Source: an uncultured archaeon (lineage in GTDB: Archaea; Asgardarchaeota; Lokiarchaeia; Sigyniarchaeales; SOKP01). Taken from it: a stretch of 64,000 nucleotides of DNA. The position numbers were made by a program, and so were the translations under genes. The notes under the pieces are model-generated. The model was not told the origin of the DNA. It did no database searches and saw only the letters and a list, made by a program, of their open reading frames with translations. Below, piece after piece: positions 4,087 through 54,392 of this stretch. The DNA lies in contig CAZALK010000005.1 of NCBI GenBank assembly GCA_964486045.1, positions 190,713-254,712 on the forward strand, written 5' to 3'. Position 1 is the stretch's first letter. Each line of letters starts with the position of its first letter.

Positions 4087-5493
4087 TTGAGTGATTTAGA
4101 AGGATTGACTAGAAAGTTAATGGAAAAAGGTTTTAAAAAGGAAGAAATCATTGTAAGGCTTGTTAATGAATATATGGATTTTAAAGACATTGACCAAGAG
4201 TCCGCAACTCTTCTTGCTGCAGCAATTTATGAAGAATGTAAAAAGAGCGATATAATAACTGTTTCAGATCCCTTTATAAGAAATTTGTTAGATATTAATA
4301 TGGCAAATGTAACTATTGGAAAACAAGGAGTGGGTTGTAGAGGATCAGGCGACTTTTTTGTTCATAAACTCGTTGCAGAGTTATCTGAAACAGAAATAAG
4401 GGCATATTTATCACCTAACTCCTTAGATGATGCTGGAGCTGTGAAGATTAGTGATATTGACGGATTTAAAACAGAAGATGATCTAATCATTGTATCTAAA
4501 ATGGAAGGAATTCATAGCCGCTTAAGTGACTTTCCATTCTTGTGTGGTTTTCACGTAAATTCATGTAATGCGTTTGTGTGAAGCGTATCGAGAGCTGCAC
4601 TACGAGATCTCTATGTTAAAGGCGCTAAGCCTATTTCAATAATGGTTGATGTACATCTAGGAGATGATGCAGACGTAGGTAAACTTTTTGATTTTATGGC
4701 AGGTATATCTTCTGTTTCAGAATTAGCAAATGTTCCAATAACAGCAGGTTCAACTTTGAGAATAGGTGGTGATATGGTTATAGGTAATCGATTGGTAGGG
4801 GGTGTAAGTGCTGTAGGTATCTGTACCAACTTATTGGCTAGGAGAAATATTAAAATTGGTGATAAGATACTAATGACTGAGGGAGCTGGTGGAGGTACAA
4901 TAACTACAACAGCGATCTATTCTGGGAATCACAATGTTGTCAAAGAAACAATGAATGTTAAGTTTCTTGAAGCTTGTGAAGTGTTATTAAATTCGGATTA
5001 CCTAAAAGACATTAGTGCTATGTGTGATGTTACAAATGGAGGACTTCGAGGAGATCTCTATGAAATTAACTATGAAGCTAACTGTGGTATGACAATATAT
5101 GAAAATGAGGTAAAAAAACTTGTAAATCTAAACGTTTTAAATCTTTTAGAGAAAGTGCAAGTTGATTATTTAGGTGTTTCTCTTGATGCTCTCCTAATTT
5201 ATTGTTCTGAATCTGCTTCAAAAAAAATTATTTCAGATTTAAAAAGAATAAGTATAAGATGTGCCGAGATTGGTTTCGTGAATGACTCAAAGGAAATATC
5301 CATGATATATTCCGATAAATCGAAAGAAAAAGTCCTTCCACGATTTCGAGAATCGGCATATACAAAAGTTAAACAAGTAATTGGTGAAGAAACTCCAGAA
5401 TTGATTAAAGTAATGGAAAAGAAAATTGAAGTCGCAGCCAACGCTGCTTTAGAAAAGCGTAACAATATTATAAGAATTATCAAAAATCTTTGA
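4087..5493 (+). CDS. AIR synthase/HypE/SelD-superfamily protein, 458 aa after removal of intron 4559-4588
   Basis: ORFs 4087-4581 and 4642-5493 are in the same frame, separated by a 30-nt insert containing TGA. The spliced junction reads FHVTRAALRDLYVKG. Also has the CDVTNGGLRGD motif. Confidence 0.88.
4559..4588 (+). other. BHB mRNA intron, 30 nt
   Basis: Outer helix tgtggttttc/gagagctgca, central helix acgt/gcgt, bulges aaa and atc, inner helix ttcatgtaa/ttgtgtgaa. Cuts aa|a and at|c give cac gta acg aga (HVTR). Confidence 0.9.
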
Positions 5494-40446: not shown

Positions 40447-40977
40447 ATGTCTAAAAGTAATATCACGCTAATTGGATTTATGGCAACAGGGAAAACTACA
40501 GTAGGGAAGGCACTAGTAGAATATCTAGGAAGCACATACTTCTTCATTGAAACAGATCAAATAATAATAGAGAATGTCGGAAAGGATATCCCAAAAATTT
40601 TCGCTGAAGAGGGTGAAAAGAAATTTCGAGAATATGAAATAACCGCATGTAAACAAGTTTCCTTGCTAAAAAATGTTGTAATTTCATGCGGAGGTGGTGT
40701 TGTGTTAAATAAGGTAAATATTGACAATTTAAAAAAAAAATGCCATATCATTTTATTAAAAGCATCAATTCAAGAGATATACACTAGAGCTATGAAAAAT
40801 GGAAAGGAAACTAGACCTATTATTAATAAAGAGGACCCCAAAGGTGAAATAAGAAATGTTCTAAAATTCCGTAATCCGTTATACGATAGAGCTGCAGATT
40901 TTATTATCGAAACAACTGGTAAGAAAATTAATGATATTGTTTTGGAGATTGTAAAAAAAACCTATCTAAAAACCTAA
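40447..40977 (+). CDS. aroK: Shikimate kinase, bacterial AroK type
   Basis: GFMATGKTT, GEKKFREYE, SCGGG and RP motifs. Confidence 0.9.
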   Translation: MSKSNITLIGFMATGKTTVGKALVEYLGSTYFFIETDQIIIENVGKDIPKIFAEEGEKKFREYEITACKQVSLLKNVVISCGGGVVLNKVNIDNLKKKCHIILLKASIQEIYTRAMKNGKETRPIINKEDPKGEIRNVLKFRNPLYDRAADFIIETTGKKINDIVLEIVKKTYLKT

Positions 40978-41035: not shown

Positions 41036-41244
41036 ATGACTGAATATAAAAGGACTAAATGCCCAAAATGTAACAATGAGAATCCACGCATGCTCCATGA
41101 TGAACCCGATAAGAGTAATATTCTTTACTACAGTATTGGAAACGTTATTTAAACTTTCCGCTGAAGCAGGGTACTCCAGTTTATGCGCGCATCATAAAAT
41201 GTGGCGACTGTGGAACCACTTTTTCTAAATCTGCTACGGCATAA
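41036..41244 (+). CDS. 59-aa zinc-finger protein after removal of intron 41137-41165 (absent from the ORF track)
   Basis: Spliced product MTEYKRTKCPKCNNENPRMLHDEPDKSNILYYSMQGTPVYARIIKCGDCGTTFSKSATA joins two CxxC knuckles. Confidence 0.8.
41137..41165 (+). other. BHB/BHL mRNA intron, 29 nt
   Basis: Central helix cagt/gctg, bulges att and aag, inner helix ggaaa/tttcc. Cuts at|t and aa|g create agt ATG cag. Confidence 0.82.
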
Positions 41245-41343: not shown

Positions 41344-42096
41344 TTAAATACTAAAATTTAATAAGTTCAGAATTTCTCTAAGTTTAGTAATATTTATTTG
41401 ACCTGGTGCTGTTTTTTCTGAATAGGAACTATATGTTAAAAAAGAATTGCTAAAATTACATAAAATTCTTGAAAATAATCCCTGATCACCCATGCAAAAG
41501 GAGATTATTCTTAATTTCTTGCTAGATTTTGTTTTGCATAGTTGTAAAGGGACTAAATTATCTTCAAAAGATTGTGCTGTAAATATAAGTTTAAAGATGC
41601 CTTTTTCTATTATCTTGTGGTCAATAAGCAACTCATTTTTCAACTTATTCAAAAAAATTTCTAAGGATTTGATAGCTTCACCGTAAGTAGGAGTTCTTTC
41701 AAAATCGTGTACAGAATAAATTAGGTTTACTTTATTATTTGAAGCTATTTGAATTATTTCGCTTAAAATACTGCTTTCTGTGTTAATTTCAATATCAAAA
41801 TATCGTGGTCCTGATTCGATTAGAAGTTTCATTATTTGAACTCGCTCACTGACATCAATTTCTAACTGCCCACCTTCAGAGCGATCTCTTAACGTACATA
41901 TCACTGGAATTTTGGGTTGAATTCGATTTAAAAGACTTACTACAAAGTCTTTTGTAATTTTTTGAATTTCAGTCATATAATCTAATCTTAATTCGATTAA
42001 ATTTGGGTTTAGCTCTACAACTTTTTTAATAGTAGGAGCGATTTCGCTGATATTTATAGATTTAACTGGAATCGGCACACAAATATTGTATTTCAT
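41344..42096 (-). CDS. aroD: Type I 3-dehydroquinate dehydratase
   Basis: IELRLD, TLRDRSEGG, SVHDF and TAPGQ motifs. Confidence 0.9.
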   Translation of the reverse strand: MKYNICVPIPVKSINISEIAPTIKKVVELNPNLIELRLDYMTEIQKITKDFVVSLLNRIQPKIPVICTLRDRSEGGQLEIDVSERVQIMKLLIESGPRYFDIEINTESSILSEIIQIASNNKVNLIYSVHDFERTPTYGEAIKSLEIFLNKLKNELLIDHKIIEKGIFKLIFTAQSFEDNLVPLQLCKTKSSKKLRIISFCMGDQGLFSRILCNFSNSFLTYSSYSEKTAPGQINITKLREILNLLNFSI

Positions 42097-42122
42097 GATA
42101 AAAAACAAACACATTAATAAAA

Positions 42123-42796
42123 TTAAATTTCTACTATTTCTTTTATATCTTCTTCTGTGAACTTTAAGGTGTTTTCAGCATTTACCTTTTTGATCTTATC
42201 CATTTCATCATAGTATTTAATTATTGGTTCAGCGTTTGCTTCATAAGCATCTAACCTGTTTTTGAGCGTTTCTTCATTATCATCACTTCTTTGTTGAAAC
42301 TTTATTTCTGAATCGCATTTATCACATAAACCTTCTACCTTAGGCGGGAGAGTATATTTGTTGTATAGTTTTCCACAGTTAGGACAGGAGTATCTACCTA
42401 AAATTCTTTTCATAATTAACTCTCTTGGGACTTCTAGGAGAAGTAATAAATCGATTTCGGTTATACTTGTTAATGCTTTTGCTTGGGAGATTGTACGAGG
42501 GAAACCATCAAGAATGAAACCTTCTGCCTTCACATCTTCCCTAGTTAGCCGATCTCGTACTATATCGATGGTTACATCATCAGGAACAAGTTCTCCCTTG
42601 TCCATATAGCTTTTTGCTTTTAATCCTAAAGGTGTTTCATTTTTTAGGTTTTCTCTAAATATATCTCCTGTACTGATATGGATAATATCTGGTAATACTT
42701 TTTTGATTTGCCCGGAAAATGTACCTTTTCTGGATTTTGGGACGCTCCCTAAAATTTTCCAGCCCCGGGGGGTCCAAATAATATTAATTTTTTCAT
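42123..42796 (-). CDS. adk: Adenylate kinase (bacterial type, Zn-LID), 214 aa after removal of intron 42728-42756
   Basis: Spliced N-terminus MKKLILFGPPGAGKGTFSGQI; HISTGDIFR, GELVPD, LDGFPRT, CPNC..CDKC and QRSDD motifs. Confidence 0.93.
42728..42756 (-). other. BHB/BHL mRNA intron, 29 nt, inside the adk P-loop
   Basis: Sense strand ctgg AAA atttt-a-ggga-gcg-tccc-aaaat ccag AAA. Cutting aa|a in both bulges gives gct gga aaa ggt (AGKG). Confidence 0.9.
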
Positions 42797-47849: not shown

Positions 47850-48375
47850 GTGAGTGAAAAAGGAAAAGTTGTTGTAATGGCTCTTGTAACTGGTGGTAGT
47901 GCATCAGGAGGGCCACCCATTGGACCCGCAGTTGGACCTACAGGCATAAACGTAAATCACCTCGATTATTGATGTATACATTAAAGATGTTGTTGACGAA
48001 ATAAATAGTCAAACAATGGTCTTTAAGGGTTTAACTGTACCGGTAAGAATAGAATGTGATCCCGAAACAAAACAATTTAAGATATTTGTTGAAACTCCTT
48101 CCACAGCATCATTATTACTTAAGGAGACTGGAGTAGAAAAGGGGAGCTCATCATGTTCAGAAGAAAAAATTGGTGATCTAACGATTGAGCAGGTTGTTGG
48201 TGTCGTTGAAGCAAAGAAAGGAAAGTTTTTAGATAAAACGTTTAAATCTGCTGTTAAAACAGCTCTAGGGACTGCATTATCTATAGGAATTACAGTTGAA
48301 GGTGAAGACCCCAGAGAAATTCAAAAAAAATTAGAAAATGGAGAATTTGATGACAAAATCAAAGGTGTATTGTAA
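47850..48375 (+). CDS. rpl11: 50S ribosomal protein uL11, 165 aa after removal of intron 47950-47977
   Basis: GTG start; MSEKGKVVVMALVTGGSASGGPPIGPAVGPTGIN|IKDVVDEINSQTMVFKG. The ORF track shows only the 3' exon. Confidence 0.93.
47950..47977 (+). other. BHB/BHL mRNA intron, 28 nt
   Basis: Central helix gcat/atgt, bulges aaa and ata, inner pairs cg/tg and aatc/gatt. Cuts aa|a and at|a give ggc ata aac att aaa (GINIK). Confidence 0.85.
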
Positions 48376-53995: not shown

Positions 53996-54093
53996 ATAAA
54001 TTCAACTTTGAAAACAAACTTATTGAATTCATGTATAATAAAGCAACGGGGAGTATTTCTTTAACTTCTTTTTATGAGTATAAAGAAATGATA

Positions 54094-54192
54094 CGCAGAC
54101 AGAGGGATTCGAACCCCCGAGTGCATTCGCACACTGGCTTTCTGGGAGTATTCCCGCTCCAAGCCAGCGCCGTACCGCTAGGCAATGTCTGC
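54094..54192 (-). tRNA. tRNA-Ser(GGA) with canonical 37/38 intron (54140-54156, 17 nt)
   Basis: GCAGACA/TGTCTGC acceptor stem, CTGGC-TTGGAGA-GCCAG after splicing, long variable arm, TTCGAAT, G73. BHB is ttgg AGC ggg..ctc ccag AAA. Confidence 0.92.
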
Positions 54193-54392
54193 AAAAAATC
54201 TGATCAGATTATTTCAGTATTATTTTCAATATAAGGATTCAAAATTTTAATATTTTATCTAATGAATTTTGAAAATAAAAATCGAAAATAATTTATTTTT
54301 ACTTGAATTTACTAAGTTACTTCAAATTGATGTAATTTACTGGAAATATACTACACCAGTAACTAAACAAATAATTTGGTGACAAATTACAT

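Follow-up and report, generated by a model that had tools for sequence, protein, structure and literature searches.

A 59-residue zinc-ribbon gene between aroK and aroD of a Lokiarchaeial genome, very probably interrupted by a 29-nt bulge-helix-bulge mini-intron

The window, the whole 64,000-nt stretch of Lokiarchaeial DNA analysed here (G+C about 31%), contains genes for shikimate dehydrogenase, a flavin reductase, shikimate kinase (aroK), type I dehydroquinase (aroD) and adenylate kinase (adk) in this order, with a gap of 366 bp between aroK and aroD. The initial annotation had placed two CxxC-bearing exons in different reading frames in this gap; both were found where it had put them, and Pfam confirmed the genes on either side (Table 1). 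Read without splicing, the ATG at 41036 starts a 38-codon ORF with the CPKC knuckle, which an in-frame UAA (41150-41152), lying inside the predicted intron, terminates. A second frame, open from 41119 to the TAA at 41242-41244, holds the CGDC knuckle together with a PVY loop; a search of this frame for in-frame ATG, GTG and TTG start codons found none. The two frames overlap over 41119-41152 and differ by -1, so that they can be joined only by removing 3n+2 bases.

Table 1. Coordinates of the zinc-ribbon gene, its neighbours, its predicted bulge-helix-bulge (BHB) elements and other predicted inserts of the same design (a slash marks a predicted protein junction)
Feature	Position	Strand	Description
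Shikimate kinase gene (aroK)	40447-40977	+	PF01202, E 1e-39; directly upstream of the zinc-ribbon gene
Exon 1	41036-41136	+	Met1-Ser33 plus AU, the first 2 bases of the Met34 codon; first zinc knuckle, CPKC
Central helix, 5' strand (H)	41131-41134	+	CAGU, in exon 1; pairs with 41160-41163
5' bulge	41135-41137	+	AUU; predicted cut after U41136
Predicted intron	41137-41165	+	29-nt BHB mini-intron; corresponds to the gap in the intronless syntenic relative L092
Intron hairpin (h')	41138-41159	+	GGAAA..UUUCC; 5 bp, 1-nt bulge, 3 bp, 5-nt loop
Central helix, 3' strand (H')	41160-41163	+	GCUG, in the intron; pairing in 25 sequences, RNAalifold
3' bulge	41164-41166	+	AAG; predicted cut after A41165
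Exon 2	41166-41244	+	G of the Met34 codon, Gln35-Ala59, stop TAA 41242-41244
Type I dehydroquinase gene (aroD)	41344-42114	-	PF01487, E 1e-46
Adenylate kinase gene (adk)	42123-42796; insert 42728-42756	-	29-nt BHB insert in the P-loop codons (GPPGAGK/GT), 1.5 kb from the zinc-ribbon intron
AIR-synthase-related gene	4087-5493; insert 4559-4588	+	30-nt BHB insert; helix ACGU 4553-4556 / GCGU 4583-4586; in-frame UGA
uL11 gene	from 47877; insert about 47957-47984	+	28-nt insert after ...GPTGINV
RNA polymerase A' gene	G000:C13 44101-44130 (L088)		30-nt BHB insert between GHFGH and IELARPV
Second AIRS/AIRS_C gene	G000:C1 759271-759300 (L089)		Insert of the same design, GGHTIYSEWPL/IGGEASG
AAA ATPase gene	C3 187694-187725 (L090)		32-nt insert just past Walker B, LLIDEIDKAD/IEFPNDLL
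Zn-ribbon and LURP-one-related gene	C18 43552-43581 (L091)	-	Insert of the same design
Zinc-ribbon homologues	L002 656-696; L065		Predicted intron in the Tyr codon of PVY (41 nt; 31 nt)
Zinc-ribbon homologues	L059, L062 1614-1643; L064 1623-1654		Predicted intron in the Lys codon after PVY (30 nt; 32 nt in L064)
Zinc-ribbon homologue	L075 1655-1684		Predicted intron one codon past the Lys codon (30 nt)

Cleavage of both bulges between their second and third bases would remove 41137-41165 and yield UAC UAC AGU AU/G CAG GGU (the slash marks the junction), in which the joined AU and G form the AUG codon of Met34. In silico, the product is a 59-aa protein with a (CxxC)2 zinc ribbon. The predicted spliced RNA would read CUACAGUAU joined to GCAGGG, with 41137-41165 absent, and the predicted tryptic peptide spanning the junction is SNILYYSMQGTPVYAR. 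The AUU and AAG bulges, the split Met codon and the 59-aa product had all been proposed in the initial annotation, and that proposal is borne out at the level of sequence by an exact indel, by covariation and by selection on exon 2.

The spliced peptide matched 38 proteins in a search, and every one with a named source belongs to Lokiarchaeota/Promethearchaeota. Some 33 of them are full-length (55-62 aa) and uninterrupted, with ...LYYSMQGTPVY...KCGxCG..., and the intronless homologues reading YYSMQGTPVY over the predicted junction, which the initial annotation had suggested looking for, thus exist to the letter. Exon 1 aligns with residues 1-33 of such homologues, and about 55 uninterrupted Promethearchaeota genes read ...LYYS-M-QGTPVY... 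at the exact junction point. In an alignment of 32 uninterrupted homologues, the residues around the junction (L30, Y31, Y32, S33, M34, Q35, G36, P38, V39 and Y40) are invariant, as are C9, C12, C46 and C49. Three short matches (38-42 aa) are exon 1 running into the insert (YYSIGNVI, YYSIENVIKTFR and YYSIGKVN); on their contigs, too, the gene lies between aroK and aroD and has a 29-nt insert in this position. The expectation that genes of this kind would be invisible to annotation therefore holds only in part: gene callers truncate or overlook such genes, and as three public records (P0034, P0036 and P0037) list exon 1 alone as a protein of 38-42 aa, this one is mis-annotated as truncated and not always missed.

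A scan with one genome per species gave 80 loci, 21 of which carry the 29-nt insert at this site. Together with the window and the three metagenome contigs, these formed a set of 25 intron-bearing sequences. In-silico removal of the intron gave intact proteins of 56-60 aa with both CxxC motifs in all 25, after a second intron, checked by hand, had also been removed in three of them. The closest intronless relative (L092), whose protein is 86% identical, has a clean 29-nt gap exactly at 41137-41165 and shares the order aroE / flavin reductase / aroK / Zn gene / aroD / adk with the window. When intron presence was mapped on a tree of the aroK genes, it cost 4 changes vs 19.3 with shuffled labels, and the intron hairpins of different clades could be aligned with one another; both observations point to an old and mostly vertically inherited intron, with some losses or gains. 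Judged from these comparisons, the intron at this site would be an old inherited feature, and a single origin is compatible with the aroK tree. Among these loci, the first knuckle of one homologue (L053, 1501-1668) is CSC and not CxxC (KCSCGEENPRK); the codon lost from this zinc ligand motif may reflect a sequencing error or a degenerate copy.

The predicted intron consists of the third base of the 5' bulge, the 22-nt hairpin, the 4-nt 3' strand of the central helix and 2 bulge bases. The CAGU/GCUG helix has three Watson-Crick pairs and one G.U pair, and hairpin h', which is also the minimum-free-energy hairpin, abuts it directly. One architecture fits all 25 sequences: a 4-bp helix H, each strand of which is followed on its 3' side by a 3-nt bulge, with a hairpin stacked on H. 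In this alignment, 95.3% of cells can pair as the structure demands, vs 19-49% when the partners are slid, and changes on both sides, that is, compensatory ones, occur in 8 of the 12 pairs. The covariation score was 0.383 vs 0.19 in shuffles, none of the 500 shuffles reaching the observed score, and RNAalifold found the same helices unaided. In helix H, 99% of cells are paired through compensated variants (CAGU/GCUG, UAGU/GCUA, CAGC/GCUG and CAGU/ACUG), with a single C.A exception, while hairpin h' shows compensatory changes in 5/5 outer and 2/3 inner pairs.

The outer exon-exon helix h is weak, with at most 2 invariant pairs beside an A.C mismatch, which makes the motif a relaxed HBh' form and not a strict hBHBh', and such a form requires a tolerant endonuclease. 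Relaxed HBh' motifs are described as frequent among introns cut by heteromeric EndA (PMC2738675, PMC5829648). Local folding of 41110-41190 was no more stable than that of shuffled sequences (z -0.42) and recovered only the intron hairpin, an uninformative result of the kind expected for a protein-recognised motif. A loose BHB pattern has 69,062 matches in the AT-rich 5.2-Mb genome, and the motif by itself is not beyond chance; that cutting at its two sites rebuilds, with single-base accuracy, a protein conserved across some 80 genomes is far beyond chance.

We estimated selection on both parts of the gene by the NG86 method. In intron-bearing genes, dN/dS was 0.10 for exon 1 and 0.087 for exon 2, with dS of about 0.9-1.4; in intronless genes, the corresponding parts gave 0.10 and 0.14. 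By this measure, exon 2 is conserved as protein in a frame that lacks an initiation codon and can be entered from exon 1 only after removal of the 29 nt.

Genes for two EndA proteins and one RtcB (557 bits) are present in the 45 contigs (5.18 Mb) of the genome, the EndA genes lying at around 36.6 kb of G000:C7 and 137.2 kb of C10. Both EndA proteins are about 200 aa long and have an N-terminal (PF02778) and a catalytic (PF01974) domain, the latter matched with 102 and 67 bits; two paralogues would be consistent with the broad-specificity heteromeric type. We consider it very probable that the interval is one gene for a 59-aa zinc-ribbon protein, whose pre-mRNA carries a 29-nt archaeal BHB intron (41137-41165) removed by EndA and RtcB. 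In the proposed mechanism, CAGU of exon 1 would pair with GCUG at the 3' end of the intron to form the 4-bp central helix in the transcript, leaving a 3-nt bulge 3' of each helix strand and the remaining intron as a hairpin stacked on the helix. EndA would then cleave after the second base of each bulge, and RtcB ligase would join the exons, forming the AUG of Met34 and bringing exon 2 into frame. Excised BHB introns are usually circularised by RtcB. We infer both splicing itself (cutting and ligation) and the enzymes responsible from these sequence features. A search of JGI metagenome contigs for the spliced-junction pattern of the window clade, as DNA or cDNA, gave no match. The single contig found there with a second junction pattern (L097) was discarded as plain genomic DNA from an intronless locus, with 87% identity to L050 across 1.4 kb.

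Three other explanations were weighed. The intron might be real and its splicing conditional, the unspliced fraction serving as a post-transcriptional throttle or the 38-aa one-knuckle peptide as a second product. A complete short ORF in the unspliced mRNA would suit this proposal, as would a relaxed motif which, for want of a strong outer helix, is perhaps a poor substrate. However, the residues read from the intron (IGNVI, IENVIKTFR, IGKVN and MGKAISAYR) are not conserved, and with no pointer to a regulator we regard conditional splicing as a speculative and decidedly unlikely addition to the main explanation.

Translational recoding, in which ribosomes would bypass (hop) or frameshift over the 29 nt and join the frames without RNA splicing, is highly improbable. 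In its favour, the two frames overlap over 41119-41152, and the take-off region is followed, as in phage T4 gene 60, by a hairpin and a stop codon. Moreover, cbf5 introns were formerly mistaken for frameshifts (PMC2738675). Yet the DNA contains no codon for the invariant Met34, whose AUG arises only once AU and G are joined. No matched pair of take-off and landing codons reaches the QGTPVY frame: a hop from AGU to the AGC at 41165-41167 enters a frame that stops after 10 codons, and a simple -1 shift in the overlap adds about 10 non-conserved residues, of which the homologues have none. Translation models do not require the conserved 3-nt bulges and the covarying 4-bp helix, which are features of an endonuclease substrate, and inserts of like design that are 30 nt long and in frame occur in other genes. 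Gene inactivation, in which 29 inserted bp would have left a pseudogene or a scar and silenced exon 2, would fit the end of the unspliced reading after 38 codons and the annotation of the truncated product alone in three databases, but it is scarcely credible: the insert stays at 29 nt in 25 sequences saturated at synonymous sites (dS about 1) and evolves through compensatory changes, the essential RNA polymerase A' and adenylate kinase genes bear like inserts, and exon 2, intact with its CxxC in every copy, combines a low dN/dS (0.087) with no start of its own and a frame unreachable without splicing, which excludes a pseudogene.

As to the product of the spliced gene, profile comparison identifies it as the Loki-specific 'Zn domain', a (CxxC)2 zinc ribbon predicted to bind zinc. 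The family profile matches, over residues 6-54, the C-terminal Zn domain of the Loki gelsolin 2DGel (7WHG chain G, residues 288-333, E 1e-9), which likewise has (CxxC)2 and a long loop with a conserved Tyr at its tip (Y40 here). In 2DGel the domain lies at the C-terminus, whereas here it stands alone and is encoded beside aroK. Akil et al. 2022 (PMC9433394) described this domain as Loki-specific and found it, with its Tyr-tipped loop, at the C-termini of unrelated proteins and as stand-alone small proteins; they gave it no function and did not mention interrupted genes. Consistently with their description, an exhaustive profile search returned 97 representatives, many of which are C-terminal domains of longer proteins.

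An AF2 model of the spliced product predicts a three-stranded zinc ribbon (pLDDT 84.7). Pfam gave only generic, sub-threshold zinc-ribbon matches to the spliced peptide, and comparison of the model with the PDB (Foldseek) and by wide VIA-align gave only weak, generic zinc-ribbon neighbours (the N-terminus of NrdR at Z 3.7; TFIIS and Rpb9 at E > 0.2), from which, being weak and generic, no function was drawn. A predicted complex of AroK with the zinc ribbon scored 0.02, which counts neither for nor against an interaction. The zinc-ribbon gene lies directly downstream of aroK, on the same strand and at a distance of about 60 nt, in 72 of 83 related loci of these deeply diverged Promethearchaeota, among which aroK identity is 53-89%; this preserved adjacency suggests that the two genes are co-transcribed.

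We then considered other genes of the same genome. A genome-wide scan for the BHB motif with the same cut rule and fused ORFs, used as a candidate list only, showed no overall enrichment (298 matches vs 283-334 with shifted-cut controls) and a slight excess at L = 30 (13 vs 7.8). Many of the matches were adjacent genes, such as sdhA/sdhB, but checking confirmed clear true positives in the RNA polymerase A' gene, the two AIR-synthase-related genes, the AAA ATPase gene and the zinc-ribbon/LURP-like gene. Besides that of the zinc-ribbon gene, six other putative introns of this kind were checked in the genome. In the RNA polymerase A' gene, Pfam Rpb1_1 is matched at 2-73 in exon 1 and at 74-312 in exon 2, contiguous at the predicted junction. 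In-silico splicing of the AIR-synthase-related gene gives ...CGFHV-T-RAALRDLYVKGAKP..., and its exon 2 matches Pfam AIRS 43-97 and AIRS_C. In adk, the insert, read directly, has AAA bulges beside a perfectly paired CUGG/CCAG helix, and its hairpin is 10 bp long; without the insert, the gene encodes a 214-aa Adk collinear with the intronless Adk of L092, all but one of the first 48 residues being identical. The 238-aa ORF that an annotation-style reading of adk yields was rejected as an artefact, a read-through from an upstream ATG. For uL11, Pfam L11_N is matched at 4-28 and 25-58 in two frames, and removal of the insert gives ...GINVKDVVDEINSQT..., with a less clean BHB geometry (3/4 helix pairs and a shifted hairpin). 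The inserts share a layout of 1 nt, hairpin, 4 nt and 2 nt and differ in sequence. A search of the genome for the exact motif of the zinc-ribbon intron found it at this locus only, so that the introns are not sequence copies of each other.

The zinc-ribbon gene itself is interrupted at additional positions in other lineages (Table 1), and in each case the same cut rule restores the consensus protein in silico. Across lineages, this gene of 56 codons has four intron positions, the one in the window and three additional ones, and L002, L065 and L075 each fit two introns into about 170 nt of gene. In L002 and L065, the central helix of the second intron is again CAGU/GCUG, a reuse that hints at intron duplication or transposition.

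Among the closest known counterparts is the cbf5 pre-mRNA intron of Crenarchaeota (Watanabe 2002; Yokobori 2009, PMC2738675). As described in the latter report, cbf5 introns are mostly of the unconventional BHB type, 16-44 bp long and cut between the second and third bulge residues, and the splicing of archaeal protein-coding transcripts is presented there as confirmed for no gene other than cbf5. The likeness to the zinc-ribbon intron extends to a short BHB intron within coding sequence that splits a codon, the cut rule, an often unconventional BHB, a heteromeric endonuclease, a length too short for coding and presence or absence that varies among relatives. The two differ in phylum (Crenarchaeota vs Promethearchaeota/Asgard) and in host gene, here a zinc ribbon of 56-59 aa; moreover, the zinc-ribbon intron is one of many in its genome and its gene was invaded at four positions across lineages. 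The splicing of cbf5 has been confirmed experimentally, whereas we infer that of the zinc-ribbon gene from sequence comparison. The zinc-ribbon intron is thus of the same kind as the orthologous cbf5 intron (in the catalytic Asp codon, in Desulfurococcales or Sulfolobales) without being a member of that group. The non-canonical BHB introns of archaeal tRNA genes (Marck & Grosjean 2003) share the motif, the cut rule and the presumed use of EndA and RtcB, and differ from the present case in that the host here is an mRNA.

Since the mechanism is that of the cbf5 pre-mRNA intron, the kind is already known. Confirmed archaeal pre-mRNA splicing in print is essentially limited to cbf5 of Crenarchaeota, and the literature searched on Asgard introns dealt with tRNA only; compared with that literature, the novelty lies in the phylum, the host gene and how densely such introns occur. 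Taken jointly, the data make it likely that the protein genes of Loki-type Asgard archaea contain uniform mini-introns by the dozen, each about 29-32 nt long, which are removed by tRNA-splicing enzymes and have been gained repeatedly, as the four positions in a 56-codon gene across lineages suggest. The hosts may include the essential RNA polymerase A' and adenylate kinase genes and, probably, that of uL11. If such a genome-wide system is real, the archaea most closely related to eukaryotes would splice mRNAs and gain and lose introns as a matter of course, and the current annotations of their genomes would contain systematic errors at the genes concerned. The comparative case is unusually clean, combining an exact indel, covariation and selection on a frame reachable only by splicing. 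Should RNA confirm it, Asgard archaea would splice mRNAs routinely via EndA/RtcB, which would bear on the evolution of intron-bearing genes and of RNA-ligase-based splicing (cf. eukaryotic HAC1/XBP1). A small gene with a 29-nt intron and a predicted junction peptide also makes a convenient experimental test system.

Asgard tRNA genes are heavily interrupted according to two reports (PMC11291895; bioRxiv 10.64898/2026.10.13.758758), neither of which mentions introns in protein-coding genes. In line with them, ARAGORN found 31 tRNAs across the genome, 20 with introns; the low total and the high share of intron-bearing genes suggest that many interrupted tRNA genes were missed. Within the window, ARAGORN also reported a 101-nt 'tRNA-???' with a 4-base anticodon at 54093-54193 (minus strand), which is probably an intron-interrupted tRNA gene.
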